Below are positions 25,097 through 40,065 of a DNA stretch of 64,000 nt, piece after piece. Location of the stretch: assembly GCA_001790445.1 (NCBI GenBank), contig MGCQ01000007.1:66608-130607 (forward strand), written 5' to 3'. The position numbers were made by a program, and so were the translations under genes. The stretch comes from Candidatus Saccharibacteria bacterium RIFCSPHIGHO2_12_FULL_41_12. GTDB taxonomy: Bacteria; Patescibacteriota; Saccharimonadia; Saccharimonadales; 2-12-FULL-41-12. The notes under the pieces are model-generated. The model was given only the letters and a program-made list of their open reading frames with translations. It did no database searches and was not told where the DNA came from. Each line of letters opens with the position of its first letter. The stretch's first letter is position 1.

Positions 25097-25666
25097 ATGG
25101 ACGCAATTGCCGAAGCTTTTAAATCAGTTCCCCGGGTGGATTTTGTGCCTGAATGGCTAAAAGATCATGTAAACGTAGACACTGCCTTACCCATTGGCGC
25201 TGGTCAGACTATTAGTCAGCCCAGCACTGTCCGGATGATGTTGGAGTGGCTTGGGGCACAACCAAGGGATAAAGTGCTCGATGTCGGGTCTGGGTCGGGC
25301 TGGACTTCAGCCTTGCTGTCTAATATCATCGGGTCAAAAGGCAAAGTATTTGCGGTTGAGAGGATACCCAAGTTGCTAGAACAAGGTAGAGAAAACTGCA
25401 AAAAAGTGGGCGCTTTGAACGTTCAATTTTTCCAAGCTGGCAAAAGCTTTGGTTTGCCCCTGCATGCGCCGTATGATCGGATACTGGTCAGTGCAGCAGC
25501 ACAAAAACTGCCTATAGAGCTACTGGATCAGCTAAAAGTCGGCGGCAAATTAGTCATCCCAATTGGACACGAAATATTAGAAATTAGTAAAATCTCTGAT
25601 AAAGATTATGAGACAAAATCACATCCAGGCTTTATATTCGTCCCTCTTAGTTTAGCCTGTCGTTAA
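25097..25666 (+). CDS. pcm: protein-L-isoaspartate O-methyltransferase
   Basis: TISQPSTVRMM, the SAM motif LDVGSGSGW, and a C-terminal FIFVPL. Confidence 0.9.
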   Translation: MDAIAEAFKSVPRVDFVPEWLKDHVNVDTALPIGAGQTISQPSTVRMMLEWLGAQPRDKVLDVGSGSGWTSALLSNIIGSKGKVFAVERIPKLLEQGRENCKKVGALNVQFFQAGKSFGLPLHAPYDRILVSAAAQKLPIELLDQLKVGGKLVIPIGHEILEISKISDKDYETKSHPGFIFVPLSLACR

Positions 25667-25694
25667 AAGACGGATCTTTTAGTTCTTTTTTATT
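25663..25694 (+). repeat. direct repeat copy 1: TAA stop plus hairpin plus T-tract module
   Basis: ttaaaagacggatcttttagttcttttttatt. The first 18 nt are identical to 28140-28157. AAAGA/TCTTT stem followed by T-rich tract. Confidence 0.7.
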
Positions 25695-25874: not shown

Positions 25875-27101
25875 ATGAGTAGTTCTACCGACAAGCAAGA
25901 ACAAGTATACCGAAAAACAATTCGTGTTTTGGTGGGTTCACAACTTATGGCCGGTGCAGGGCTGGCAGCAGGGATATCTGTTGGGGCTTTGCTAGCTGAG
26001 GAAATGACTGGCTCGACTGGAGCAGCTGGTTTGCCAGCGGCACTATTTACTTTGGGCTCAGCTATCGCTGCGGGACTCGTTGGTCGTATTTCCCAAAGCC
26101 ATGGTAGACGGATCGGGTTAGGTATTGGTTACTCCGTAGGCGCTACAGGTGCAGCTGGCATTGTTCTGGCAGCCATACTAGGTAGTCTTCCTCTGCTGTT
26201 TGTCTCGTTACTCCTTTATGGCTCAGGCACAGCCACAAACCTGCAAGCTCGCTATGCTGGAGCAGACCTTGCCAAGCCGTCCAGAAGAGGCCGTGCAATA
26301 AGTACCGTTTTGGTTGCCACCACGCTGGGCGCGGTGCTCGGCCCAAATCTCATTGAGTTGACAGGATCAATTGCCGGATCACTTGGAGTCAGGGAGCTAG
26401 CCGGACCTTTCATGCTGGCTGTGCTTGCTTATGGGACTGCCGGCGTCGTAGTTTTTGTCTTTATGAGACCTGACCCTCTACTGATGGCTCGCGCCTTGGC
26501 ATCACGTGTTTCTCAGCAGACCAAAGACCAAAAGCAAACTACCAGCGACACTGATTCACGGCGCACAGTTAGGCTGGCAGCCGCCGCCATGATAATCACG
26601 CAAATGGTCATGATCGCAATAATGACCATGACACCGATACATATGAGATCACATGAGCACAGTTTGGCGGCCGTAGGATTGATAATTTCGATTCACATAG
26701 CAGCAATGTACCTGCCATCTCCTCTGACAGGGTTACTTGTCGATCGTTTTGGATATCGTCGTATTCTAGCTTCGGGTGGGCTAATTTTGCTCGCAACTGG
26801 AATCTTAGCCTCGGTCGCTCCCGCAAGTTCTATGATTCTACTGGGTGTTACGCTTGGTCTACTCGGGCTTGGTTGGAACTTTGGGCTCATCGCTGGAACT
26901 GCGGCTGTCACGCAGGCCACACCGCTTAGCCGGAGGGCCAGCACTCAGGGTTCGGTTGATCTAGCGGTTTCTCTGGCTGGCGCAACTGGTGGAATGGGAA
27001 GCGGCTTCATTATGGCTAGTAGTAGTTTTGCGATGCTAGGGCTGGTAGGAGGCTTGCTAGGGCTGGCAATTCTGCCACTGCTTATCGCTTATCGCGAGTA
27101 A
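25875..27101 (+). CDS. MFS transporter
   Basis: 408 aa with about 12 Gly/Ala-rich hydrophobic segments. Hand-counted lines give about 50-58% GC versus about 40% in flanking genes. Long antisense ORFs are consistent with high GC. Confidence 0.8.
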   Translation: MSSSTDKQEQVYRKTIRVLVGSQLMAGAGLAAGISVGALLAEEMTGSTGAAGLPAALFTLGSAIAAGLVGRISQSHGRRIGLGIGYSVGATGAAGIVLAAILGSLPLLFVSLLLYGSGTATNLQARYAGADLAKPSRRGRAISTVLVATTLGAVLGPNLIELTGSIAGSLGVRELAGPFMLAVLAYGTAGVVVFVFMRPDPLLMARALASRVSQQTKDQKQTTSDTDSRRTVRLAAAAMIITQMVMIAIMTMTPIHMRSHEHSLAAVGLIISIHIAAMYLPSPLTGLLVDRFGYRRILASGGLILLATGILASVAPASSMILLGVTLGLLGLGWNFGLIAGTAAVTQATPLSRRASTQGSVDLAVSLAGATGGMGSGFIMASSSFAMLGLVGGLLGLAILPLLIAYRE

Positions 27102-27145
27102 TGAATCCCAATTATCAACAAAGGTCAGTTCTTTAACAGATATCG

Positions 27146-28117
27146 CTAACTGTCTGTAGGCTGGCCGTTGTTAAAGTCGAGCGTATTGTATGGTGCTTCC
27201 GAGCAAAGATCACTAATTATGTTTGGCTTACTTGGGTTCACTACAACTTTCCCTAGCGCCTTAATTTTGTTTGCATCGTTGCTAGGGAACATGCCAAACC
27301 AACAGGATGCAAACCACTCATGGGATTGATACTGATTGTGTATGCCAGCCCATTTACTATTTTTAGAAATTTCGTTTCGACTACGGTAGTCATATACGCC
27401 AAAGTCGAATCCAAAATTCTTGGTAGCAGGGAAGCCAATGGCAGTAGCTACTACATCGCCTGACTTGAACTTTGTACGAGCGAAGGGAAGATTTGGATCT
27501 GTGCGAGTGTCGTCTTTCTTTGGCTCTGGAGTCGTATCGGCGATTTTCTGAAATGCAGGAGCCAAGGTGTATAAATGATCAAAGCGAAAGGCAATACCAC
27601 AGTCAGTCTCAAAGGTCAGCAAGTACTGCAAAGTTGAGGGGTTACCCTCATAATACCTAGTCAAGCTGACAAGTGTTGCATCGATTGGCATTTTTACTTC
27701 CACTTTGCCGTCAGGGCTGTTGTCTATTCTAAAACCACCATGTGGTTTGTAATTATAACCACGGTAAGATCCGGGCATGAGCAAGCTGGTTACTTGAGCT
27801 ATATCAACAGGTGTTTGGTCAAAGATAAAAGGATTTTTGCATTTTGTGGGTTTGCCACTTTGGGTAAACCACTGGAGCTCCTTTTCGTTGAAGGCCCATT
27901 TTACGGGGTCGCTATTTTTAGATTCGGAAGACGTAGGTTGACTACTTTGAGATGATTTGTCTTTGCTTTTATACACATTGAACCCAGCAAAACCAACTCC
28001 TGCAACAACAGCAAGGACAATAATGATCAGAAAAAGATGAGCAAAGCCTGATTCATGTGTTTGTTTTTGACACATACAATAACTATATGAAAAGTCTATT
28101 ATAATTACAACACCCAT
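27146..28117 (-). CDS. membrane-anchored/secreted hypothetical protein (start possibly Met15 at 28075)
   Basis: N-terminal TM (LFLIIIVLAVVAGVGFAGF), a Ser-rich linker, and an unassigned C-domain of about 250 aa. Confidence 0.5.
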   Translation of the reverse strand: MGVVIIIDFSYSYCMCQKQTHESGFAHLFLIIIVLAVVAGVGFAGFNVYKSKDKSSQSSQPTSSESKNSDPVKWAFNEKELQWFTQSGKPTKCKNPFIFDQTPVDIAQVTSLLMPGSYRGYNYKPHGGFRIDNSPDGKVEVKMPIDATLVSLTRYYEGNPSTLQYLLTFETDCGIAFRFDHLYTLAPAFQKIADTTPEPKKDDTRTDPNLPFARTKFKSGDVVATAIGFPATKNFGFDFGVYDYRSRNEISKNSKWAGIHNQYQSHEWFASCWFGMFPSNDANKIKALGKVVVNPSKPNIISDLCSEAPYNTLDFNNGQPTDS

Positions 28118-28122
28118 ATTTT

Positions 28123-28140
28123 TGGCTGGGGATGAGGGAT
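28123..28140. repeat. distal copy of the tRNA-Gln 3'-end core (outermost att-like site)
   Basis: Exact 18-mer, followed directly by TAAAAGACGGATCTTTT. Confidence 0.8.
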
Positions 28141-28268
28141 TAAAAGACGGATCTTTTTTGTTCTTTTTATTTATTTTTGAATATTAGATCAAATTTGTGT
28201 ATAGCTTGGGTTACAGTAAAGTAAGGGGGTAGACAAAGACGTATATTTATAGTAGAATATTAATAATT

Positions 28269-28784
28269 ATGTTACGAATTGCACCGTTTGAGCAGTGTAT
28301 TGTATATGAGGAGGCCAACAGCTGCGCTTTTGCAAAACAATGTAAAGCCCCCAAAAAATGCGTAGGTATTAGTATTGTGGTCGACGAAGATCATTTTCAA
28401 ACTGCTAAATCACTAGGTCTGAAACCTGAGATAGATCGGCTAATTCATTTTACGGGTAGTGATCCCGAGACAAATGTTACTAAAATTTCTTTGTGCGAGC
28501 CAGCACTTACTGACCCAAGAATTGTTGGAGGAGTAAAGTTACTTATGGCAGAAGTTGATGCAGATGCATTTGTTGAACCTTCTGAGCTGCCTGCTCTGCG
28601 AGAAGTTGAAGCAGTATACAGTGGACATCTAACAGATATTGATCAAGTTGCTACTGATAAAGGTTTGCAGGCAGTAGAGTTTGTAACAGGCTCGACTAGC
28701 AGTAGTTTCTATCCAACAGGGGACAGGCTTGCTGAAGAGGGTGGAAGACTAGTATTAGTGCCTATCTACGATTTCGAAAGATAG
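28269..28784 (+). CDS. hypothetical protein (between att-like copies 1 and 2)
   Basis: 171-aa ORF. No motif recognised. Confidence 0.45.
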   Translation: MLRIAPFEQCIVYEEANSCAFAKQCKAPKKCVGISIVVDEDHFQTAKSLGLKPEIDRLIHFTGSDPETNVTKISLCEPALTDPRIVGGVKLLMAEVDADAFVEPSELPALREVEAVYSGHLTDIDQVATDKGLQAVEFVTGSTSSSFYPTGDRLAEEGGRLVLVPIYDFER

Positions 28785-28800
28785 TCATTGATATTGTACT

Positions 28801-28818
28801 TGGCTGGGGATGAGGGAT
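28801..28818. repeat. second copy of the tRNA-Gln 3'-end core
   Basis: Exact 18-mer TGGCTGGGGATGAGGGAT. Confidence 0.8.
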
Positions 28819-28972
28819 ATCGGCTAAAGCCTCCTCCCTGCGGTGCTCGGAAAATGTGAAAGTAAACTTTCCCGCCTTCCTGCGCTCCTCGTCCACCGAA
28901 CCCCTTTTGGCGGTTCGTACACCTTATTCTCAATCAGTTTTAATCTTAGAACTAAAGCCCTAACATTAAAAC

Positions 28973-28994
28973 TGGCTGGGGATGAGGGATTCGA
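28973..28994. repeat. third copy of the tRNA-Gln 3'-end core (22 nt identical to the tRNA copy)
   Basis: TGGCTGGGGATGAGGGATTCGA is identical to 38679-38700. Confidence 0.8.
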
Positions 28995-29157
28995 CCTACC
29001 TTTGGCAGGCCCGAAACTTCGCGATTGCCAAACCAGTTGGCATCGGAAGGTTTCCTTGCAGACTGCCGACTGGCAGTCCTCACCCCGATCTTTTTCGGGG
29101 GTCAAACCCATTTCTCAACAAGTATTTTCTAAAACCCAAATGGGTTATAAAAAATAC

Positions 29158-29178
29158 TGGCTGGGGCTAGTGGATGAG
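29158..29178. repeat. degenerate core-like copy
   Basis: TGGCTGGGGctagtggATGAG matches 9 + 5 nt of the core around a 7-nt interruption. Confidence 0.35.
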
Positions 29179-29631
29179 TTTCAGGAAGATTTTAGACAGG
29201 TAACAGAGGTAGTGCGTCAAATAACCGGCTCTATCTATGCGTGAACGTACCTACCCCCCACTACATTATTGAAGGGGGATATACCTACTGTAATTTGCAT
29301 ATTTAGCTTATTAATGTTCTCACGGTTTGCGTTAACCTACAGGGGTAGAAGCCCAAAACACTTGCTCTGTGCGTAAAAAATGTTTCTACCGGGGGGGTCT
29401 AGATATTTCCAAGCGGATCAGGGCGTTGTACATTGTCGAATAATGTGCGATGACCCTGCTTGGAAGTAGTGTGTCGTACAAGAACATGTGCGACATATAT
29501 TGGCTTAGTAAAATCTAAAATCTCTAACAAACAATTCACGTCTTATCAAACATACCCCTACCTTCTCTTTTGCTCTTCTGTGTTCTGTATTCGGTTCGCG
29601 CGCAAAAAATATTTGATTTGGCACTATAATT

Positions 29632-32600
29632 ATGGATGTTATGGCTAAGAAAACCACCGCAGTACCAAATGAGCCGAATGATGACCAGTCTTTACCGCAA
29701 AAAGTAAACCTGATACTTTTGCGTATCTTAAATGATGCCGCACCAGAGTTGGGGGATTATTACTTAGGGGCTCTACACACTCTCGCAAACACGTCTAACC
29801 CCGATAGAATTGCCCAGTCCGCACATAGTCTGCGTGAGCTGATACAGCAACTTCCAAGGCGACATAAAAAAGCCGCTACAAAAGTTACTCCACCCGGATT
29901 GCTTTCGGGAGCTTCGAATATTTATAAGACCCGTGATGTATGGAATTCGCTAACCATTGATGACTTCAACACCCCTACTGTTCGTCCTACGGACGTACAG
30001 GCGGAAACTAAGTATTACCGCGAATCAAAAAAGTTATGGGAGTTTATAAACAAATACTACCCTACGAACGAAGAAGAACGGCTGAGAATGGAGGCTGGGA
30101 TCAGGAAAGACACGCCCTTACCACCTAAGCTTCAAAAAATGAGGATGCAAGAATGGAGTAGGTATTACGCAAAGTTTGCAGATATTTCTCATCATGGCTC
30201 AACACCAACCGATGATTTTGACCAATTAGTAGAGTCATTTGAAGATTTTTTAATCAGAGAACTAGACCCACAAACAACAAAGGATTTTGCTGAAGTAGCG
30301 AAACTGATTAAAGAAATCGAGCAAGGTGACCAAAAGAACCTAGAGAAGTTGATGAAATTGGTGCGCTCAAATCGCCCAAACTACGACCACTTCTTCAACA
30401 ATATATCAGCTTCAGTATGGCTTGAAATTTTAGAAGCAAATAAGCTTTTAGATCATATAGACGAGCCTTACCCTGCGGAAGAAGGTGGATTCTATATTTT
30501 GCCGTGGGTTCCGGCAAATTACTATCAAAAAATAGCTAGAGAAAAACCTGATAAAATTATCAAGATATTAAAAGCTGTTATCGGCACCGAAAACGTCCGT
30601 GCTCAAGACCAGATACTTGAGATTGCGAAAGAGTTACCAAGCGATTCACTTGGGTTTATAGTCGCTCAACTTTCAAAATGGCTTAAGGGTAGATATGCGA
30701 ACCGTGGCCTAGTACCGTTTAGGGTTGGCGACCTTATTGTATATTTATGCGAGTCAGGTTATTTCGAACAGTCTATGATTGCATTCAAAGCACTCTTCGA
30801 GCTATTAGAACCTGAAGATAACGAAAGAAGTAAGTACTTCAGACATCCAGACACGCTAACATCGGACAGTTCTTACAAGACTTTGCTCCAACAAGTTCTG
30901 CCGAGTTTAATGAAAGTAAACCCAACAGAAACTGTTAAAGAGCTGTCCATTTTATTGAATGACGGGTTAACCATTGAACGAGAATCAGGCAAAGAAATAG
31001 ACGGAATTATTTATGACGGCTCTACTATTTGGCGACCTGATATTAAAACAAAACAGTACGATCATGAACCCTGCGATATATTGGTTACAGTTATTTATAA
31101 ATACGTGCATGAAATTGTCTCCTCCGAAGAAGAACTGGAGCAAATAGTCATTGAGCTTAGGAAATATAAATTTGAAGTATTCCACCGAATAGCTGCAACT
31201 TTGCTTGACGATGCTAAATCAGAAAAACTTAAAGCAATTAGAAAAGAGATAGTAGATAAAATTGGCGACCCAAGTAAGAAAGACTTTATCGTCAGGGAAT
31301 CAAATGTTATCCCTGCAATAACCGTTGATGATCTCAAAGAGCTCTCTGTTAAACAAATAATTGAAAAATTTAACAGCTGGGATCCAAAAGAGGAACTTCC
31401 TGGTTTTGGTAGGTCAAAATCTGATATTGGATTCGAGTTAAATAAATATCTGGCTGATAAGCCTGATGATGCTTTGACGTTTCTCAAAAGCGAGCTACCA
31501 ATTAACGATGAATACTTAAGCCATATATTTAGGGGCATTAGACAAGCTTCCGATAATAAGAAAATTAATATCAAATGGGAAGAGTTCATAAAATATGCCC
31601 AGAAATATATTTCATCCGCTAACGTAAGAAGCTCTACAGGTAATGAGCGTCAGAATCTCTTTGATCTTATTAATTCAATAGATTCTGGAATTAACCATGA
31701 TCACATAAAAATTCAAGATGTTAAAACTTTTGAAGATTTAGTTGCTATTTTCAGCTCATTAACAGATCACGTTGAACCGAGTTTAGAAGATGAAGATAAA
31801 TATACCAAGAGTTCTAGATCGGAAGCGGTTACTCTTGCGATAAACACCGTGAGAGGTGAAGCTGTCGGTGCGCTAATAGATATACTCAAAAATATATCTA
31901 GAAACAACAAGGAAGCATCCGCCATACCTAAAGAAAAGAAAGATGCGGTGTACGCAAAGCTTAAGGAAAAGCTGGACATAAAAAAAGAACCTACCCTAGC
32001 GGTTCGAACTGTATTTTCAAGAGAATTGCCGTTTTTAGCCTACGATAATCCAGAATGGGTAGCACAGAATCTTGAGCTGATTTTTCCACTCGATGAATCT
32101 AAGGCTAAGTATTTTGAAAATGCTATGGAAACATTCATAACGTTTACCAAAGTATTCCCCGAAGTATTTCCAGTCATTAACCCCTACTTAGTTGAATATA
32201 TGGATAGAATCAAAAAAGACGAAATTAAAAACCCGGATGAGAATACTGTCAATCATGTAGTGGGTCAAATCTTACTTATGCATATTGATAACTTTGTAGA
32301 TTTCGAAAATCCGGCAATGAAGAAGTTATTTGAAATGCCTGATGCCTTTCTTGAAGAAGTCATGGATTTCTTTGGTCGAGGTATCAAACAAACTGACGGC
32401 GACAGGCAAAAATTAATAATACATAAAGCTAAGAAATACTGGGAACAAAGACTAGCTAGTAAAAACGTTAAGGAATCTGAATATGCAAAGTTCGGCTGGT
32501 GGATGCGTGCTAATGCTACTGATGACTGGATAATTAAGCATTTTATCGATGCACTTTCTCATTCAGCTAAAATGGACGCATTATATTTTGTGGCAGACGA

Positions 32601-32835
32601 ATTGATTGTATTAGCAGAGACAGACCAAAGTAAAGCATCGAAAATATTTCTGGAAGTTGTTACAACTCAAGACAAAGACAACTTAAATCATATGCTCTAC
32701 ACGCCAGAGCTCTCGACGATGCTTAAAGAAATGCTTGCAAATGGAGGTACTGAAACTAAAAAAAATGCAACAAGGACTATCGATAAGCTTTGTGATATGG
32801 GCTATTACAATTATCAAGAACTGATCAGCTCTTGA
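29632..32835 (+). CDS. large hypothetical protein (1067 aa), predicted helical-repeat-like, no recognisable catalytic motif
   Basis: Uninterrupted 3.2-kb ORF, Lys/Glu/Leu-rich with amphipathic-helix character. I found no P-loop, nuclease or protease motif by eye. TATAAT at 29625-29630 lies 1 nt before the first ATG. Confidence 0.6.
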   Translation: MDVMAKKTTAVPNEPNDDQSLPQKVNLILLRILNDAAPELGDYYLGALHTLANTSNPDRIAQSAHSLRELIQQLPRRHKKAATKVTPPGLLSGASNIYKTRDVWNSLTIDDFNTPTVRPTDVQAETKYYRESKKLWEFINKYYPTNEEERLRMEAGIRKDTPLPPKLQKMRMQEWSRYYAKFADISHHGSTPTDDFDQLVESFEDFLIRELDPQTTKDFAEVAKLIKEIEQGDQKNLEKLMKLVRSNRPNYDHFFNNISASVWLEILEANKLLDHIDEPYPAEEGGFYILPWVPANYYQKIAREKPDKIIKILKAVIGTENVRAQDQILEIAKELPSDSLGFIVAQLSKWLKGRYANRGLVPFRVGDLIVYLCESGYFEQSMIAFKALFELLEPEDNERSKYFRHPDTLTSDSSYKTLLQQVLPSLMKVNPTETVKELSILLNDGLTIERESGKEIDGIIYDGSTIWRPDIKTKQYDHEPCDILVTVIYKYVHEIVSSEEELEQIVIELRKYKFEVFHRIAATLLDDAKSEKLKAIRKEIVDKIGDPSKKDFIVRESNVIPAITVDDLKELSVKQIIEKFNSWDPKEELPGFGRSKSDIGFELNKYLADKPDDALTFLKSELPINDEYLSHIFRGIRQASDNKKINIKWEEFIKYAQKYISSANVRSSTGNERQNLFDLINSIDSGINHDHIKIQDVKTFEDLVAIFSSLTDHVEPSLEDEDKYTKSSRSEAVTLAINTVRGEAVGALIDILKNISRNNKEASAIPKEKKDAVYAKLKEKLDIKKEPTLAVRTVFSRELPFLAYDNPEWVAQNLELIFPLDESKAKYFENAMETFITFTKVFPEVFPVINPYLVEYMDRIKKDEIKNPDENTVNHVVGQILLMHIDNFVDFENPAMKKLFEMPDAFLEEVMDFFGRGIKQTDGDRQKLIIHKAKKYWEQRLASKNVKESEYAKFGWWMRANATDDWIIKHFIDALSHSAKMDALYFVADELIVLAETDQSKASKIFLEVVTTQDKDNLNHMLYTPELSTMLKEMLANGGTETKKNATRTIDKLCDMGYYNYQELISS

Positions 32836-32860
32836 TTAAATATCCCTTAGGCTATACCAC

Positions 32861-33289
32861 TTATAAACTTGGTGGGGTTTGTGCTGCAACATCCGCAGAT
32901 ACTTCAGCTCTAAAAGCTTCAACCTGGTCGGCAAATTCATCGCCAAACGCACCTCGTGCGAGCTGAGTTGCCTGATAAACAGAAAACATTCGATACATTA
33001 CTGGAGGGTAATTAAGAACACTCGCAGGCATTGGTTCACCACCGAAACCGCTTACCCCTTTATTACAGTCATAGGCTAGAAGTTCAGTAGCCATAACAAA
33101 GCCCATAGGAACTACACCACCTTTAATACGGTCAGCCAAAAGAGTGGCTAAATCAACAGTAAGCCGATAGTCGCTCGTACCAAGTTCATCGCCCTCAGTA
33201 GCAACACGCTCTTGCAAGTGCGCCAAAAGCTGTTCGCCTGTTCCAACTAATCGATCTTCTTGTTCGCCACCGTTTAAATGTTCTGACAT
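32861..33289 (-). CDS. acidic hypothetical protein (142 aa), downstream partner of the 557-aa ORF
   Basis: Starts 22 nt after the stop of the 557-aa gene with AGGAGA upstream. No motif recognised. Confidence 0.5.
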   Translation of the reverse strand: MSEHLNGGEQEDRLVGTGEQLLAHLQERVATEGDELGTSDYRLTVDLATLLADRIKGGVVPMGFVMATELLAYDCNKGVSGFGGEPMPASVLNYPPVMYRMFSVYQATQLARGAFGDEFADQVEAFRAEVSADVAAQTPPSL

Positions 33290-33311
33290 ATTATCTCCTA
33301 TAAATTACTAA

Positions 33312-34985
33312 TTAAGCTGCACTTTGTTCTAGACGACTCATGTAAGTTCTAACAACAACGTCAGTTCTTTGAGTAGTAGCTTCATCAAATGGATCGCCAA
33401 CTGGTTCAACAACTATTCTGATTTTTGGTGTGTTTTTCTTACTATCGCTTGTACGTCTTACTTCTTTTGGTAGTGGACCCCAAACAGATGTACCATCATG
33501 ACCAAAGAAATTATCCAGATCAGCACTTGAGTCATAATCACGTCGTTCGGTTTCTAATATCACGCTTACGCCCGTAGCTTCGTCCTGCCATATTGCAGGT
33601 TGGCGACTACCATACTTACTGTATCGCTGATATTTTGCTTTTGGTGCATCGTCCTTATCACCTAAATAGTCTTCTAAGTAATCAGCAACGTCCTGTTCAC
33701 TCACAGGAATGCCTAATTTATCGCAAACTGCTTTTACATCTACAAAGAAGTAGCCATCGCGTTCGGTTTGGTTGACCGGAATCTCAATTGTAGCATTACG
33801 CAAACCACGCTTCATGCCTAGGGCACTAGCTAGTTGATCTTCAACTTGATCGCCTGCATAAGCAGCAGAAAGGGTTAATCCAACACCGTCTTTGGTAATT
33901 TCTACCTCGCCATTGGTTTTATGGAAGTGTCCAGCACCATCGTAGTCAAAACCAAAGTGGACGCTTTCACTGGTAGCTTTGGCTCTTTTCTTTTGTAGTT
34001 GGTTCCATTTGTCCTGAACCTTGCTAGTAATTCTATTACTAACGAACTCACGCATATCACCGCTACGAGCCGCTAACGAGAATAATGCTCCGCCTAGGCT
34101 GCCGTGTGCGTCTGCAAATGCTTTATCATTGTATTCAAGAGCGGTTTCGCCACCAGGCGTAGGGTAAGAACCGTCGCCATACATAACAAGTGCGTGCTCA
34201 AGTTGTTCAGGGTGAGCAAAGAGGATACCTTTTCTGTACTCCGAAACGTTAAAGTCGGTAATTTCCAGTTCTTTCGGGTCTAACTGCTCACGAGTTAAGG
34301 CAGAAATGCCATTCGGATTAGTCATAAGCCATTCTTCATAATTAGCCAAGTCAACAGTCATAGGTTCGCTGTCTTCACCTTGTACTTTCTGTGTACGAGT
34401 CATTTTGGCAGGAGTCTTACGACCTGCTTCATCTACTGTGTACTCAAAACGATCAGTTATTGTTGGCTCAATGTAGCCCCAAGTTAGGCGTTCTGTTAAA
34501 TAGCCTTCATTATCATAAGTAAGAAACTCTTGGTAGCGTGGGCGGTGTCTGTTGTACGAGTGTTCACCTTCAATAAGTTCAAACTTTACCATTCGTCCGT
34601 TAGCATCAAATTGATAGTTAATCCCGTCATAAAGTGGTGTGCTACCTTTAGCGTCAGTTTGTCCTTCATACGCACCAGTTGTGTATGTAAGACCTTCGCC
34701 ATCTTCCTTATAATGCCAAGGTAATCGACGTTTGTGTGGATTAGTAGCAAATATGTCGTGTATCTGGTTTTTTGTGGCTGGTTTGATAGGTTCTGAAAGA
34801 GCAGTAACGAGTTCAGGAAGAACTTCTGCCACAACTGCTTTGGTAGCCTCATCATGAAGCCTTAGAGGCCACATAGTATCACGAGGCATATTTATTTGAG
34901 GAAAGCGAGATTGAAGCGTAATAGCCTCGTCTACAAACTCACCGCCTTGAGGAAAACCTTCTGGATTTACACCTGATGTAGTCAT
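33312..34985 (-). CDS. hypothetical protein (557 aa) with a short YD-repeat-like segment
   Basis: Residues about 118-190 contain YQFDANGRMV, LTYDNEGYLTERL and FEYTVDEAGRKT, which resemble RHS/YD repeats. The rest is unassigned. No signal peptide. Confidence 0.5.
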   Translation of the reverse strand: MTTSGVNPEGFPQGGEFVDEAITLQSRFPQINMPRDTMWPLRLHDEATKAVVAEVLPELVTALSEPIKPATKNQIHDIFATNPHKRRLPWHYKEDGEGLTYTTGAYEGQTDAKGSTPLYDGINYQFDANGRMVKFELIEGEHSYNRHRPRYQEFLTYDNEGYLTERLTWGYIEPTITDRFEYTVDEAGRKTPAKMTRTQKVQGEDSEPMTVDLANYEEWLMTNPNGISALTREQLDPKELEITDFNVSEYRKGILFAHPEQLEHALVMYGDGSYPTPGGETALEYNDKAFADAHGSLGGALFSLAARSGDMREFVSNRITSKVQDKWNQLQKKRAKATSESVHFGFDYDGAGHFHKTNGEVEITKDGVGLTLSAAYAGDQVEDQLASALGMKRGLRNATIEIPVNQTERDGYFFVDVKAVCDKLGIPVSEQDVADYLEDYLGDKDDAPKAKYQRYSKYGSRQPAIWQDEATGVSVILETERRDYDSSADLDNFFGHDGTSVWGPLPKEVRRTSDSKKNTPKIRIVVEPVGDPFDEATTQRTDVVVRTYMSRLEQSAA

Positions 34986-35079
34986 AAGCGCATATAATAC
35001 TACAATATTAGATATTAGTCAATGATTTTTAGAAGTTATTTTTTGCGTTTAACAGTAGTCAAAAACGAAGTTCGGTTTT

Positions 35080-35271
35080 TTACTTCTGTTTTATATTCCT
35101 AACAGCAGCGATTGGGTCAAACTGTCCGCTTTGTACGGCGATTATATATTCGCGAGCAAGTCCACTAAGCTGGTCGATAAGTTCATCAACTTCCTCGTCT
35201 GTCATGTCTTTGGCTTCTTCGCCCATGATCTTACGAGCTTCTTCGACTGTAATTCTTGAATTAGAGTCCAT
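35080..35271 (-). CDS. small acidic hypothetical protein
   Basis: 63 aa. Overlaps the upstream DUF805-like gene by 11 nt. Confidence 0.35.
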   Translation of the reverse strand: MDSNSRITVEEARKIMGEEAKDMTDEEVDELIDQLSGLAREYIIAVQSGQFDPIAAVRNIKQK

Positions 35272-35668
35272 CGCTAAGAAAAGTTATAAATAAACCTGTT
35301 AGGTATGTCAGAAGAATAGCGATTACAACGATCAAGCCAATCCGCCATCCCTTAGCGCGAATGCCGAACATGTAGAATGCTTTGCTTGCATGTTCCGGCT
35401 TGCTAGGAGCAAAAAGGGCGTATGGCAGTAACAGGATTGTCGTCGGTGGAATTAACGCGAGTGTCCACCAACCGCTATGTCCGGTGTTTCGCAGTCGCCG
35501 AGCCGTCCAGATTATGATCGGAATAACGAGTATGAGGCTCAGTGGTTTTGCAAAGCCAGCAATAAACTCATCACTTCCGGCAACAGTATTGCAGAGCGCA
35601 AATGTTGGAAAAACAAACAGCATGGACGCTGTATATGATTTTGCATTCATGGTTGATACTTTTTTCAT
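35261..35668 (-). CDS. DUF805-like inner membrane protein
   Basis: ARRLRNTGHSGWW matches the DUF805 signature (RRLHD.G.SGWW). Three or four TM helices. AGGAGG SD. Confidence 0.6.
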   Translation of the reverse strand: MKKVSTMNAKSYTASMLFVFPTFALCNTVAGSDEFIAGFAKPLSLILVIPIIIWTARRLRNTGHSGWWTLALIPPTTILLLPYALFAPSKPEHASKAFYMFGIRAKGWRIGLIVVIAILLTYLTGLFITFLSDGL

Positions 35669-35915
35669 TCGGCCTCCTACTTGTTAAAAAGAGGCCAATT
35701 AAAAAAGGACAACCTCTCTAGATTGTCTAGACCAACACAGGTTGTAACCTATGCTTTCGAGAAGTTGCCCATTTTTGGTTACAACCAATCGAATATGATT
35801 GGGCTTTACAAGCCGTGTTGATCTAGACCCCTTAATCATATCAAGAAATGCTGTGAAAAAGGACTACTGTTATGAAATAACTGGACGAAAAACTATAATC
35901 ATTAACAGGTAAGTT

Positions 35916-36419
35916 ATGTCAAAACAGCATATATCTGATGAGGTGAAGATAGTTGAGATGCCGCAACAAGTGGCAGAAGCTCTACATGCTCAAATAATTG
36001 AAACAAAAAACATAGCTCTTGATTTAAAGAATCAGCTCGAGAAGATGCAAAACGATTTAAATACCGTAAAGAATATTGTCAAATCGACAAGTATTAGCAG
36101 GTCGGCATGGGTAAGGCTTAGGTATAATAAACGGCTTAGCGAGATAGTTGTTTCTGGGTATTATATTATGAAGTTCGAGAGTACCTTAGAGGGCGAACTA
36201 CTCCGTTACATGTTCACTAAGCGTGGCAAACCTTTAGATGACCGTTTTCAGTACTCCGAATTCATCAAGGAATTCAAGATAGCAGGCATAGAAAAATTAC
36301 ATAGTGCCAGAGCAATCAGTAAGATCGCATACAATTTAAGAGATCGATTCAGGAAAGAACTTGGGTACGATCAGCTACATGTTGACGCAAAAGAGTTCTA
36401 CTGGTTAAACGTACGCTAA
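35916..36419 (+). CDS. putative transcriptional regulator with C-terminal OmpR/CadC-like winged helix
   Basis: Coiled-coil N-terminus. The C-terminal pattern GELLRYMF..GKPL...ISKIAYNLRDRFRKEL...FYWLN resembles trans_reg_C wHTH domains. Confidence 0.45.
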   Translation: MSKQHISDEVKIVEMPQQVAEALHAQIIETKNIALDLKNQLEKMQNDLNTVKNIVKSTSISRSAWVRLRYNKRLSEIVVSGYYIMKFESTLEGELLRYMFTKRGKPLDDRFQYSEFIKEFKIAGIEKLHSARAISKIAYNLRDRFRKELGYDQLHVDAKEFYWLNVR

Positions 36420-36565
36420 CAGATGTAATTCTTGTCTGTATCTAATTCAGACAATGCTTTTGCTTTAATGCGTTTATGCAGGACAAGCCAAGTCAATTAA
36501 GCAAGTCAGAACTAGAGGCACTAGTTCAATTTTCCTGCTACTTGCAGAAATTGAAAGGTATGTAG

Positions 36566-37105
36566 ATGACATCTAGAAAATCAAATCAAACTAAAGGATT
36601 GCGACCAATGCAGCTCCGCTTTTTTAGTATGTTAGGAATGGAGAAGCCGAAGCCGATCCCGCCACAGCTAGCCCTAATATATGGATTTCCCCTAGCAGGG
36701 ATTATTTCTCAGCTACTATTTTGGTGGGGTTTAGAAAAAAGAGATGACGGGTTCATCTTCAAGACTGAAAAGGATTTTATATCAGAGCTCGGCATCACAT
36801 CAGCTCAGCAAAGGTTAGCAATAAAAAAAGGTAAAAAGCATGGTTTCCTTACTGTTAAGAGAATGGGCGTACCAGCAAAGAGGCATTACAAAATAGATTT
36901 TGATCTATTGGTCAAAACTACAATAAAAGAGGCTGCTGAAAAGAAAGTCACTTTGTCTATTAGCCATTACAATAACCGCGAAAAGGCCATGTCGCCTAAC
37001 GGTCAAAATAGCAGAACTACTACAGAAAGCACTCCAGAAAGCACGACTAGAAAAGGAAGTACTTTATCCACAGCCGACATAATAGCTAAGAAAATGGTAG
37101 AATGA
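36566..37105 (+). CDS. hypothetical protein, possible wHTH/replication-organiser-like
   Basis: FKTEKDFISELGITSAQQRLAIKKGKKHGFL looks like an HTH. Ser/Thr-rich tail. Assignment is weak. Confidence 0.4.
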   Translation: MTSRKSNQTKGLRPMQLRFFSMLGMEKPKPIPPQLALIYGFPLAGIISQLLFWWGLEKRDDGFIFKTEKDFISELGITSAQQRLAIKKGKKHGFLTVKRMGVPAKRHYKIDFDLLVKTTIKEAAEKKVTLSISHYNNREKAMSPNGQNSRTTTESTPESTTRKGSTLSTADIIAKKMVE

Positions 37106-37241
37106 AAAAGCTTTTCCGGTTTAAAACTATATCGCAGCGATTTTTTATTTCTGCTCTTAATGGGCGGTTGTGTTCAGAAAGACGCTGCAAAGTTGTTGGA
37201 CTGGAAAAGCCACAACCGTCCATTTTTAGTTAAGGAGTTTC

Positions 37242-38765
37242 ATGAAGGCAATAATATTGGCGAGAGTATCGACCAAAGACCAAGAGGATAACAACTCTAT
37301 ACCATCTCAAACACGCCGTCTTCATGAGTACGCTGAAAAGTTCGAACTTATTGTTCTCGAGACTTATCAACTCGTAGAATCCTCGACTAAAGCAAACCGC
37401 CGAAAGTTTAACGAGCTTATTAATCGAATAAGAGAATCTGATGAGAAAATAGCACTTATCGTAGATACGATTGATCGCTTGCAAAGAGATTTTCGCGAGT
37501 CGGTCATGTTAAATGAGCTACGACTTGAGGGCAAAATTGAGCTTCACTTTGTAAGAGAGAATCTGATTATCAATCAGGTATCGAACAGTGCGGATATTCT
37601 CCGTTGGGATATGGGGGTAATGTTTGCAAAAAGCTATGTAACCCAGCTAAGTGATAACGTCCGCCGTAGTTTTGAGCAAAAGCTGAAGAATGGCGAGTGG
37701 CTGGGAAGAGCACCGTTTGGCTATAGTAACGAAGACACGCCCGAGGGTAAAAAATCGATTGTGCCTGAACCAACACAGGCAAAGATAGTGGGAAGCATGT
37801 ACCAATGGTACGCAACTAGCTCATATTCTATGAAAGAGATTCGCAAGAAACTTATTGAAGATTACGGTCTAATCAAGTCTGTTAGCAATATAGATAAGAT
37901 CTTAAAGAATCCCTTTTACTATGGCGAGATGAAAATAAAGAATGAGTTGTACCCTCATAAGTACGAGCCTGTAATTACCCGAGGTATCTTCGATCAAGTC
38001 CAAGCTGTAAAAATCGGATTCAACAAGAAAGCTTTTAAGTATGCTGGAATCCCTTATTACTATCGAGGCCTAATGCAATGCGGCGATTGTGCTTGCAGTA
38101 TTACGCCAGAAAAGAGCAAAGGGCATACTTATTATCATTGTACGCAGTATAAGGGCAAGCACGGGGCTGCATATTTGCGAGAGGAAGACCTAACCGAGCA
38201 GTTGATGGTTGCTTTTGAGGCTATCAAGCTAACACCAGAACAATATGATGAAGTAACGACAGTTCTAAAAACCGTACATAAGGATAAGGTTAAATACAAA
38301 GCCCAGCATGTGGGGCATTTGCAAACAGAGCTAACGAAGTATCAGCAACGCCTTGAGAAATTATATGAATCGCACCTTGATAATGATATAGACCCAGAAT
38401 TCTATAAACGAAAGGCTATTGAATACAGGTCTACTCGTGATGCTATCAAGACAAAGCTAGATGCCACCGATAGAGCCGATGACGATTTCTATTTTGCAGT
38501 TGATGGGCTAATTCGAATGGCTCAAAGAGCACCTGAATTACTGGCACGTTCTGAAATGGAGCATAGGAGACGGCTTATTAACTTGGTACTTCAGAACCTT
38601 ACGGTCAAAGACAGAGAACTTCGGTGGGAGTACAGAAAACCGTTCGATACATTGTACCGAACGGCTAAAACTTCAAATTGGCTGGGGATGAGGGATTCGA
38701 ACCCCCGATGGCGGAACCAGAATCCGCTGCCTTACCACTTGGCCAATCCCCATCGACAAGAGTAA
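37242..38765 (+). CDS. large serine recombinase (integrase); the integrated form has its 3' end extended through the antisense of the tRNA
   Basis: Resolvase catalytic N-terminus AIILARVSTKDQ, a recombinase domain, a Cys-rich zinc ribbon (CGDCACS...YYHCTQY), and a coiled-coil region. The last 29 codons are antisense of tRNA-Gln. Confidence 0.9.
   Translation: MKAIILARVSTKDQEDNNSIPSQTRRLHEYAEKFELIVLETYQLVESSTKANRRKFNELINRIRESDEKIALIVDTIDRLQRDFRESVMLNELRLEGKIELHFVRENLIINQVSNSADILRWDMGVMFAKSYVTQLSDNVRRSFEQKLKNGEWLGRAPFGYSNEDTPEGKKSIVPEPTQAKIVGSMYQWYATSSYSMKEIRKKLIEDYGLIKSVSNIDKILKNPFYYGEMKIKNELYPHKYEPVITRGIFDQVQAVKIGFNKKAFKYAGIPYYYRGLMQCGDCACSITPEKSKGHTYYHCTQYKGKHGAAYLREEDLTEQLMVAFEAIKLTPEQYDEVTTVLKTVHKDKVKYKAQHVGHLQTELTKYQQRLEKLYESHLDNDIDPEFYKRKAIEYRSTRDAIKTKLDATDRADDDFYFAVDGLIRMAQRAPELLARSEMEHRRRLINLVLQNLTVKDRELRWEYRKPFDTLYRTAKTSNWLGMRDSNPRWRNQNPLPYHLANPHRQE
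38679..38752 (-). tRNA. tRNA-Gln (anticodon CUG), CCA encoded
   Basis: Hand-folded minus-strand sequence: TGGGGAT TG GCCAAGTGGTAAGGC A GCGGA TTCTGGT TCCGC CATC GGGGG TTCGAAT CCCTC ATCCCCA G CCA. It has a 7-bp acceptor with U1-A72 (typical of bacterial tRNA-Gln) and a TTCGAAT T-loop. Confidence 0.9.
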
Positions 38766-38812: not shown

Positions 38813-38951
38813 AAAGTATCAAGAGTGTAGAGAGGGATCTAGCCCGACGACCTACCAGCAACCCTTTCAGTTGGGTGCTAAATCTAGTCCTGCATGCAGG
38901 AAAGATATGAAGAACTCAAATCCTTTCTTGCAAACCCAGGAGGAAGGATAT
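38813..38951 (+). promoter_or_regulatory. SAM-I (S-box) riboswitch with SD-sequestering hairpin, controlling metK
   Basis: UAUCAAGAG...GAGGGA...GCCCGACGA...GCAACC...GGUGCUAAAUC...AAAGAUA matches the SAM-I core. ATCCTTTCTT (38920-38929) can pair with GAGGAAGGAT (38940-38949), covering the metK SD. Confidence 0.85.
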
Positions 38952-38955
38952 TTTT

Positions 38956-40065
38956 ATGCCAACAATAACAAAGAAAACCAGCGAATCTGTCTGTGCGGGG
39001 CACCCAGACAAGATCGCTGACCAAATCAGCGACGCCATAGTCGACGAGGTGCTTAAGCGTGACCCAAATGGTCGCACAGCCGTGGAGACTCTAGTTGCCA
39101 GAGACAGAGTAGTCCTAGCGGGGGAGGTCAATACAACTGCAAAGGTAGATTTTGTATCCGTAGCACGTGAGCAGATCAAAAGACTTGGTTACACAGATCC
39201 ATCGTGGGGCTTCTCTGATGAATCTGTAATAGATAATCATATCCACGCTCAATCACCAGAAATATCCGTCGGTGTCGATGATTTCGGAGCAGGCGATCAA
39301 GGCATAATCTACGGCTACGCTACTAACGAGACAGACAAATATTTGCCCACGCCGATAGCCATTGCCCACGACTTGACCAGAGCTATAGACACCGCCCGCG
39401 AATCTGGTGTAATGCCACATCTACGGCCAGACGGCAAAGCGCAGGTAGTGATCAAATATATTGATAACAAACCATCCAAAGTAGATCACGTGACTGTCGC
39501 CGTGCCACACGATCCGCGTCTGTCACTGGCCAAAATCCAAGAAGATTTACTCAAGCATGTGATTACACCAATCTTGGGGAAGTATGGTTTTAACGTGCCA
39601 AAAAACGGGTTAGTGGTCAATGGCACAGGTGTCTGGCATACCCCTGGCCCTAAAAGTGATGCGGGGCTGACCGGTCGCAAGATTGTGGTTGATGGCTATG
39701 GGGGATTAGCCCATGTTGGCGGTGGAGCCTTTAGTGGCAAAGACCCCAGCAAAGTCGACAGATCAGCAGCCTATGGTGCGCGTTATATTGCCAAAAACAT
39801 CGTTGCCAAAGGGCTGGCGGACGAAGTGGAGATAGGGCTGTCGTATTTTATCGGAGCCAAAGAGCCAGTGCAATTTTCTATTGATACATTTGGCACTAAC
39901 AAAGTTCCAACCGACAAAATCCGCGCATTTGCAGTCAAATTACTCAATCCATCAGTTAAAAACATCGTTGAAACCCTAGATCTCAAAAGACCAATTTATT
40001 TGCAAACCGCCTCCTACGGCCACTTTGGTAGAGAAGAATTTCCTTGGGAAGTAATAAAAAAATAG
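38956..40065 (+). CDS. metK: S-adenosylmethionine synthetase
   Basis: GHPDKIADQISDAI, GAGDQGI and GGGAFSGKDPSKVDRSAAY signatures. Confidence 0.97.
   Translation: MPTITKKTSESVCAGHPDKIADQISDAIVDEVLKRDPNGRTAVETLVARDRVVLAGEVNTTAKVDFVSVAREQIKRLGYTDPSWGFSDESVIDNHIHAQSPEISVGVDDFGAGDQGIIYGYATNETDKYLPTPIAIAHDLTRAIDTARESGVMPHLRPDGKAQVVIKYIDNKPSKVDHVTVAVPHDPRLSLAKIQEDLLKHVITPILGKYGFNVPKNGLVVNGTGVWHTPGPKSDAGLTGRKIVVDGYGGLAHVGGGAFSGKDPSKVDRSAAYGARYIAKNIVAKGLADEVEIGLSYFIGAKEPVQFSIDTFGTNKVPTDKIRAFAVKLLNPSVKNIVETLDLKRPIYLQTASYGHFGREEFPWEVIKK

Follow-up and report, generated by a model that had tools for sequence, protein, structure and literature searches.

A stretch of 64,000 nucleotides from the assembly of Candidatus Saccharibacteria bacterium RIFCSPHIGHO2_12_FULL_41_12 (GCA_001790445.1, contig MGCQ01000007.1, positions 66,608–130,607; hereafter the window) was analysed around int, a recombinase gene on the forward strand (37242–38765) that encodes 507 aa in its integrated form and is read into a tRNA gene. 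Comparison with related loci points to a 9.5-kb integrative plasmid-like island of Saccharibacteria (Patescibacteria), which would be mobilised by a large serine recombinase (LSR) whose phage-type attachment site, attP, is located inside its own gene. We estimate the probability of this reading at about 85%. The island body extends from 29167 to 38678, and the unit between the two copies of the common core was shown to be 9,521 bp (approximately 29167–38687).

Judged by its domain make-up, the int product is predicted to be a large serine recombinase. Pfam matches comprised a Resolvase domain (PF00239, residues 3–153, E = 3e-16), a Recombinase domain (PF07508, 3.4e-12, 47 bits) and a zinc ribbon (PF13408 Zn_ribbon_recom, 5.8e-6, 27 bits compared to a cut-off of 25.3). 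Residues A7, R8 and S10, of which R8 and S10 are catalytic, were invariant among 33–35 homologues. A sequence search against solved structures matched the catalytic domain to that of the TP901-1 integrase (3bvp), and gave no match beyond the catalytic domain. In the AlphaFold model of the homologue P0039 (55% identical), long helices (residues 332–449) separate the zinc ribbon from a terminal beta-hairpin; the confident fold stops at approximately residue 476, and the predicted local distance difference test (pLDDT) score is below 50 for residues 482–504. Because the tail that is exchanged upon integration falls outside the confident fold, the model suggests that it is not part of the folded protein and that both forms of the recombinase are probably active.

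The integration target is a tRNA-Gln(CUG) gene with encoded CCA on the reverse strand (38679–38752; ARAGORN; Rfam, 61 bits). A preliminary description of this DNA, made from the sequence alone, had stated that 38679–38696 is read by int as WLGMRD and that the open reading frame (ORF) continues through the antisense of the tRNA, and this was confirmed by ARAGORN, Rfam and translation. The 18-mer concerned, TGGCTGGGGATGAGGGAT, is the antisense of the CCA with the discriminator G, of the 3′ strands of the acceptor and the T-stem, and of the last base of the T-loop, and the TGG codon of the invariant Trp480 of int is the antisense of the CCA. Beyond the core, the ORF continues as SNPRWRNQNPLPYHLANPHRQE through the tRNA body to a TAA at 38763–38765.

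In related species the synteny of tRNA-Gln and metK is kept but the other flank is not, and the left boundary of the island could not be fixed from empty sites. It was located by comparison with the closest relatives with long flanks, L003 (77% identity) and L005 (74%), whose islands measure 9,227 and 9,344 bp. No repeat of their own 18-nt tRNA end was found within 11 kb upstream in these two loci, with 3 mismatches allowed. The sole upstream repeat of the tRNA tip was 9–10 nt long (L003:2211; L005:2094) and was located at the edge of a block of foreign genes, where the sequence continues with CTAGTGGATGAGTTACAGGAAAG and ATAGTGGATGAGTTGAGGGAG (CTAGTGGATGAGTTACAGG and ATAGTGGATGAGTTGAGGG, respectively), as it does at window position 29158 (TGGCTGGGGCTAGTGGATGAGTTTCAGGAAGATTTT). 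The L003 junction motif used as a probe gave one site in the 64-kb window (29158–29193), which was identical at 33 of 36 positions with 0 such sites expected by chance, and a peptide-pattern scan of the window in six frames gave no native-tail site besides 29158. Since the far junctions of the relatives consist of a short core and a conserved native tail, and this combination is found in the window only at 29158, the partner of the tRNA site is placed there and not at 28123.

The common core TGGCTGGGG, which corresponds to the CCA, the discriminator G and 5 nt of the acceptor 3′ strand, is thus present at 38679–38687 (attR) and at 29158–29166 (attL). At attL it is followed in frame by the displaced native 3′ end of int (29158–29244, forward strand; WLGLVDEFQEDFRQVTEVVRQITGSIYA, with the stop TGA at 29242–29244), and the first ~30 nt of the displaced tail make up the conserved P′ arm of attP. 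The excised form was reconstructed by joining 38687 to 29167 (AATTGGCTGGGGCTAGTGGATGAGTTTCAGG). This gives an attP composed of 38640–38687 and 29167–29215 (junction 40-mer ACTTCAAATTGGCTGGGGCTAGTGGATGAGTTTCAGGAAG) and an attB composed of 29113–29166 and 38688 onward to 38735 (empty-site 40-mer GTTATAAAAAATACTGGCTGGGGATGAGGGATTCGAACCC). The core comprises int codons 480–482, attP being located ~27 codons ahead of the natural int stop, and the natural last 25 codons with the stop were left 9.5 kb away at attL. Residues 1–482 of the integrated form are encoded by the element and residues 483–507 (MRDSNPRWRNQNPLPYHLANPHRQE) derive from the tRNA antisense; the reconstructed excised form would also be 507 aa, ending with WLGLVDEFQEDFRQVTEVVRQITGSIYA, with LVDEFQEDFRQVTEVVRQITGSIYA as residues 483–507. 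The displaced 28-codon tail is still open and showed 61% identity with that of L003. The tRNA-Gln is left intact by the insertion, as the 9 nt common to both junctions are those with which the tRNA itself ends.

Homologues of the recombinase numbered more than 1,700 at E ≤ 1e-10 and were mostly metagenomic, the one named close relative being from Saccharibacteria. A metagenome scan gave 80 loci, of which 79 were anchored on the conserved C-terminal region. The int ORF was found to overlap a tRNA gene on the opposite strand in 47 of these 79 loci (Asn-GUU in 23, Gln in 19, and Asp, Ile, Tyr, Glu and Trp in one each), and in 37 of the 47 the terminal TGG of the tRNA was in frame 0, i.e., it served as the Trp480 codon; the contigs of another 9 loci end inside the expected tRNA. 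The association of a serine integrase with a tRNA 3′ end, which had been pointed out as unusual from the window alone, was thereby shown to be family-wide, and even the distant recombinases L027 and L098 (29% identical) have long ORFs that enter tRNA-Gln at the same point.

Far junctions were sought where the upstream DNA was long enough, and were located in 13 elements (the window, L003, L005, L137, L180, L145, L149/L150, L140, L158, L167, L159, L165, and L169). The identity between attL and attR in these elements was 8–11 bp, always starting from the TGG, and the islands were 3.5–10 kb long. An attP/attB identity of 18–22 bp, which had been assumed earlier and would have been exceptional, is thus replaced by one that is ordinary for LSRs. 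All 13 far junctions consist of the core followed in frame by CTAGTGGATG.GTTTCAGGAA, and encode the peptide W-L-[GPR]-[LI]-[VI]-[DN]-x-[FI]-[QKR]-[ED], followed by 13–47 unconserved residues; the conserved tail of the close relatives is W-L-G-[LI]-V-D-x-F-Q-E. These elements uphold in principle the earlier proposal that attP lies inside the 3′ end of int and that the C-termini of the protein differ between the integrated and the excised state. An alignment of seven far junctions showed nothing conserved to the left of the core, whereas 25 of the 29 positions from the core start (the 9-nt core and 20 nt to its right) were invariant, after which the similarity decayed. L158 and L167 contain the same element with unrelated left flanks. 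The candidate pair in L185 had only TGGCTT in common.

The C-termini of the homologues were of three kinds: WLG(M/W/R)RDSNPR... or WLPxxDSNLQP, which are tRNA T-arms read backwards; very short ends, in which WLG, WLGR or WLPR is directly followed by a stop; and WLG(I/L)VDxFQE... with a divergent continuation, to which the tail at window position 29158 belongs. The short tails (WLG and WLGR with stop) were considered as excised forms and rejected, as the stop in L005 is a TAG in the T-stem of a tRNA-Gln(UUG), so that this copy is integrated. In relatives whose int does not enter a tRNA (P0039, P0040, P0041, P0035, and P0120), the protein runs 17–40 aa beyond Trp480 and has a conserved motif. 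Homologues extending about 29 aa further with similar sequence had been named in the preliminary description as an argument against its predicted early stop, and this is what was found, in modified form. Differences among the C-termini recorded for these proteins in databases would represent insertion-state artefacts and not real sequence diversity.

Two contigs contain an int that does not adjoin a tRNA and has a native-type tail. L215 (6.2 kb, 65x coverage) shows the attP arrangement; besides Rep and an int that has the native tail WLGIVDVFQEETRTASLNLLDHLMI, it encodes a restriction-modification (RM) system, whose place in an integrated copy would be the far end. L216:1–7385 is a tandem, in which Rep and int with a native-type tail are followed by the cargo, Rep and int of another element (64% identical). 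Its P-core-P′ hybrid junction corresponds to the product predicted when a second element integrates into the restored tRNA. Contigs with a native-tail int, L215 and L216 among them, showed no terminal overlaps. Arrays of orphan attL junctions with fragments of the recombinase tail were observed near tRNA-Gln in L127 (1306, 1572, 2671, and 5542), L010 (minus strand; 3173 and 4151) and L144 (5495, 6553, and 7861). Taken together with L216, these arrays are suggestive of repeated use and decay. Among ~100 tRNA-Gln loci of related species, 2 had an intact ORF of recombinase length that enters the tRNA, and 2 more had adjoining recombinase homology; insertion is thus sporadic, since so few of these loci carry a recombinase. 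A deviating case was observed in L006/L007 (11438–11491), where a 75%-identical recombinase is followed by TGGCTGGCGAAGTTGCCC... with neither a tRNA nor a native tail, and mobile-element genes (PLD nuclease, reverse transcriptase, and relaxase) are located downstream. This could be an off-target insertion or a rearrangement.

In the general LSR model, an attP of ~50 bp and an attB of ~40 bp are joined at a 2-bp central crossover, and the recombinase and zinc-ribbon domains read each half-site. Transferred to this family, the crossover would fall within TGGCT (AGCCA in the tRNA, the discriminator-CCA tip of tRNA-Gln and tRNA-Asn), which is the part common to all pairs. The acceptor/T-arm of the tRNA would be the one conserved half-site of attB, the other half-site being whatever is found downstream of the tRNA, and the conserved stretch of ~30 bp on the right side of the core would be the P′ half-site of attP; in the window, P′ resembles the tRNA arm at 13 of its first 18 nt. 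The first ~8 codons of the tail would then be conserved mainly for being the P′ half-site. Among nine reconstructed genes, nucleotide invariance was 53% in the core and P′ compared to 27% for the gene body and 0% for the remainder of the tail, and in codons of the gene body with an invariant amino acid the third base was kept in only 10%. Because invariance in the core and P′ exceeds that of the gene body, this stretch appears to be constrained as DNA and not as protein alone. After excision, the element would probably replicate by means of its initiator-like protein, described below.

The preliminary description had proposed other island ends (28141–38696), with 18–20 bp shared and with an excised int that ends in ...NWLGMRD, a stop and a terminator (junction AATTGGCTGGGGATGAGGGATTAAAAGACGG). 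An exact 20-nt direct repeat (28122–28141 and 38678–38697) and the TAA directly after 28140, followed by an A/T hairpin and a T-tract, agree with this proposal, and both the copy at 28123–28140 and its TAA are indeed present. The 18-mer is however found in four exact copies in the window, relatives are without such a long repeat, and no P′-type sequence follows 28140. The hairpin has six pairs, nearly all A/T, and is weak (−6.1 kcal/mol, z −1.6), no terminator was called after 28140 by a terminator scan, and the same module follows an unrelated host gene, PCMT. Moreover, the native tails of the family continue 17–40 aa beyond Trp480, and the copy at 28973 is part of a conserved RNA-like unit that is integrase-free in other genomes. 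These ends are thus very improbable: the recombination partner is 29158–29166, and the circle would encode a protein that ends with ...NWLGLVDEFQEDFRQVTEVVRQITGSIYA and a stop (507 aa). It is extremely improbable that a tyrosine integrase, lost or located elsewhere, made the island ends and that the serine recombinase is a passenger resolvase or invertase beside the tRNA. Insertion at a tRNA 3′ end with displaced tRNA fragments is a hallmark of tyrosine integrases (PMC4383910), and the extra 18–23-nt copies of the tRNA end just left of the island could stem from such elements; yet 13 elements in different genomes have their junction at the same int codon, the displaced piece is the tail of int itself, and the CCA is in frame as Trp480 in the 37 of 47 tRNA-overlapping loci mentioned above. 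A nearby tyrosine integrase had also been considered earlier as a possible source of the repeats, but no Phage_integrase domain was found in the island or ~10 kb on either side, either by a Pfam scan of nine island and flank ORFs besides int or in precomputed Pfam matches for ~17–50 kb of the window, and other islands of the family are likewise without a tyrosine integrase. These comparisons support that the recombinase, and not a tyrosine integrase, defines the island ends.

The anatomy may also be right while the copy in the window is a fixed fossil, immobile now, with the tRNA overlap as a leftover of no functional consequence. All five contigs with the exact recombinase are integrated, no empty site or circle was found, and the orphan attL arrays in L127, L010, and L144 point to frequent decay in place. 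We nevertheless consider a fossil unlikely, if well worth keeping in mind, as int has its full length and none of the invariant catalytic residues is missing, the displaced 28-codon tail has stayed open at 61% identity with that of L003, insertion is sporadic among the ~100 tRNA-Gln loci of related species, and contigs assembled from other samples end ~100 nt within the left end and in the tRNA core, a pattern expected if strains differ there. Several observations weigh against an LSR island with attP inside int as such. No circle, empty site or attP junction of the window element was found, and look-ups with exact proteins (int, metK, ORF323, and PCMT; all contigs retrieved were 100% identical to the window) gave the integrated arrangement only, the exact recombinase being present on four long contigs and one 2-kb fragment. 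The attP-type motif TGGCTGGGG(A/C)TAGTGGATG was absent from IMG/VR, and L215, with all element genes and a native int tail, is compatible with a circle but, being without terminal overlap, indistinguishable from a tandem array. The P arm is weakly conserved (11% invariant nucleotides). Inverted-repeat symmetry round the core is weak as well, with 8.5 of 24 pairs at best (offset 5) compared to ~6 at random, and for this reason the crossover dinucleotide is not pinned down. Finally, such an island does not account for the exact 18-mers at 28123 and 28801.

Starting from an LSR island with attP inside int, it is conceivable, although we consider it quite unlikely, that swapping the C-terminal tail provides the enzyme with a built-in sensor of its integration state. 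The native tail (LVDxFQE) would be needed for, or would tune, the synapsis of attP and attB, and the tRNA-encoded tail together with head-on transcription of the tRNA would damp or redirect the integrated enzyme. Directionality and stability would in that case be partly hard-wired by the position of the gene, as has been proposed for IntP and IntX of Mx8, where integration at tRNA-Asp reportedly gives the less active IntX.

Large serine integrases are known from phages and conjugative elements, e.g., phiC31, Bxb1, A118, and TP901-1. To our knowledge, they have protein-coding genes or intergenic sites as targets and an attP outside the integrase ORF. The recombinase of the window is similar to these enzymes in having resolvase catalytic, recombinase and zinc-ribbon domains and a long coiled coil, in the location of int beside attP and in the short identity (8–11 bp here), but differs in targeting the discriminator-CCA tip of a tRNA gene and in having attP ~27 codons inside int. 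In the survey made with TIGER, 14 out of 297 serine integrases were assigned to t(m)RNA genes compared to 44.5% of the tyrosine integrases, and it was stated that such use by serine integrases "has not been reported previously" and that experimental proof was needed (Mageeney et al., 2020; PMC7192596). No family, sublocation or int-embedded attP is described there for the serine integrases that were flagged. Tyrosine integrases were previously the only ones known to target tDNAs (Hudson et al., 2015; PMC4383910).

Some integrases, among them those of Mx8 and SSV, extend across attP (PMC4383910). The Mx8 IntP/IntX enzyme (Tojo et al., 1996, cited in PMC4383910) is a tyrosine recombinase, unlike int of the window. 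SSV-type archaeal int genes are interrupted by their own att site and resemble the system of the window in having att within int and tRNA genes as targets (PMC5861418). They are however tyrosine recombinases whose gene is divided into two large parts and inactivated, whereas here a tail of 25 residues, apparently unstructured, is exchanged. The attP core inside the int ORF and the alteration of the protein by integration are found in the window as in the Mx8/SSV1 type, with serine instead of tyrosine chemistry; from the sequence, int would thus be similar to the gene-spanning integrases in anatomy without being a member of that class.

Tyrosine islands of the Islander class likewise are small islands beside a restored tRNA, with a tRNA-proximal int, tandem accretion and scars (PMC4383910), but have their crossovers in the anticodon and T-loop regions and long displaced tRNA fragments, compared to only the last 8–11 nt here. 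The far junction in the window contains only the last 9 nt of the tRNA, the longer copies of 18–23 nt being outside the element. The integrative and conjugative elements of actinomycetes (AICEs) of the pSAM2/SLP1 type are also small and have an integrase together with a replication initiator and integration at tRNA genes, but they use tyrosine integrases and carry transfer genes (PMC2440964). A literature search gave no paper on a family of serine integrases that target the tRNA tip or have attP embedded in int. A gene-spanning attP is so far known from tyrosine recombinases only, and is found here with the chemistry and domain plan of an LSR and with a tRNA target at a different sublocation.

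In the textbook division, tyrosine integrases are found at tRNA genes and serine integrases at protein-coding genes or intergenic sites. A large and coherent family of serine integrases, with its more than 1,700 homologues and the tRNA overlap in more than half (47 of 79) of the surveyed loci, is at odds with this division. The discriminator-CCA tip is a sublocation unused by the classical classes, and the AGCCA tip is near-universal among tRNAs as a landing site. The family would also be the first serine-recombinase case found of an int that spans its own attP, with DNA-binding and coding constraints acting on the same 30 bp. The reconstructed sites are candidate att sites for integrases in Patescibacteria, which lack genetic tools, and since a conserved tRNA arm serves as one half-site of attB, the integrases may be portable. 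The family also indicates how small defence-carrying islands may move in reduced genomes.

Just upstream of int, a 179-aa ORF (36566–37105) showed similarity to replication initiators (phrog_9773 "replication initiation O-like", 3e-20) and also to a DnaD-like loader (5e-14). A Rep of ~265–291 aa was found next to int in 8 of 14 family elements, and that of L215 matches PF23343 in Pfam; the Rep of many relatives is probably of the rolling-circle type. The cargo of the window island further includes four ORFs without a match to any family (1067, 142, 557, and 63 aa), a DUF805 protein, whose gene is common to the window and L003, and a 167-aa ORF common to the window and L005. PADLOC and PHROGs matched no defence family among the cargo ORFs of the window, no transfer gene was recognised in the window island, and no directionality factor was identified among its small ORFs. 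The recombinase family was nearly absent from IMG/VR, with one distant match. The family elements appear to be small integrative plasmid-like islands rather than prophages. The cargo of the relatives was observed to be mostly anti-phage defence (L003:2496–7940, L005:3532–7360, L006:2726–8603, L215:3274–5377, and L216:3014–5249), and comprised HinfI-type restriction-modification with SIR2 and DUF87, an OLD-TOPRIM and UvrD pair, an MmeI-type enzyme, and ThsB-TIR with a protease and DpnII.

Exact copies of the 18-mer were found at four positions in the window (28123, 28801, 28973, and 38679), compared to 0.02 matches expected from shuffles. A fifth, diverged copy (29158–29175) has only TGGCTGGGG in common with the other four. 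The three extra copies are all located left of attL, outside the present element, and retain 9–14 nt of the tRNA-side arm. The copy at 28123–28140 (forward strand), for which the true identity with the tRNA side is 20 nt, is followed directly by TAA and is without a P′ arm and without structure. The copy at 28801–28818 (forward strand) heads a unit of ~150 nt that is also found in another genome, L121; the sequence following it (28819–28972) resembles the region at L121:3795. Neither of these two copies has recombinase-tail sequence or a strong structure; they may be pseudo-attB sites or scars left by other elements, and, more speculatively, all extra copies could serve as pseudo-attB sites. 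The extra exact 18-mers would belong to older scars and to a neighbouring tRNA-like RNA unit, and not to the element itself. A 31-nt module, TAAAAGACGGATCTTTT...TTCTTTTT.ATT, was found twice, 2.5 kb apart (25664–25694 and 28141–28171); one module, with the 17-mer TAAAAGACGGATCTTTT at 25664, makes up the stop of the host PCMT gene and the sequence downstream of it, and the other comes directly after the copy at 28123. The DNA that separates these modules may be an insertion.

The third extra copy (28973–28990) is contained in a structured RNA-like unit of ~114 nt on the reverse strand (28973–29086), the last 22–23 nt of which are the tRNA-Gln 3′ end including the CCA. The predicted fold has a closing stem and three hairpins (z −4.7). 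A covariance model built from three genomes detected the unit beside tRNA-Gln in five more, with no integrase near, and 27 of 36 predicted pairs showed compensatory changes among the eight sequences. These other copies are located at L100:2468–2582, L124:7815–7930, L019:3409–3518, L099:68–185, L070:2737–2851, L087:142–247, and L047:70–185, with a diverged 3′ end in L087 and L047, and in several Saccharibacteria the unit is found just downstream of tRNA-Gln. Rfam gave no match for 28973–29086, which is possibly an undescribed tRNA-like small RNA.

Two independent assemblies from other samples contained the same contig of 2,379 nt, corresponding to window positions 26888–29269 (L132 and L133), which ends ~100 nt within the left end of the island and, on the other side, within a gene for a major facilitator superfamily (MFS) transporter. 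Contigs from a third sample break at 29020 (L134) and inside the tRNA core, at 38685 (L130). Such breaks suggest strain heterogeneity at these points. The MFS transporter gene (25875–27101) is located in a stretch with a G+C content of 53% (26001–27000) compared to ~41% for the window, and was probably acquired horizontally. On the other side of the island, an S-adenosylmethionine (SAM) riboswitch (38813–38911; Rfam, 49 bits) was found upstream of metK (38956–40065), and tRNA-Gln and metK adjoin in ~10 other Saccharibacteria genomes.

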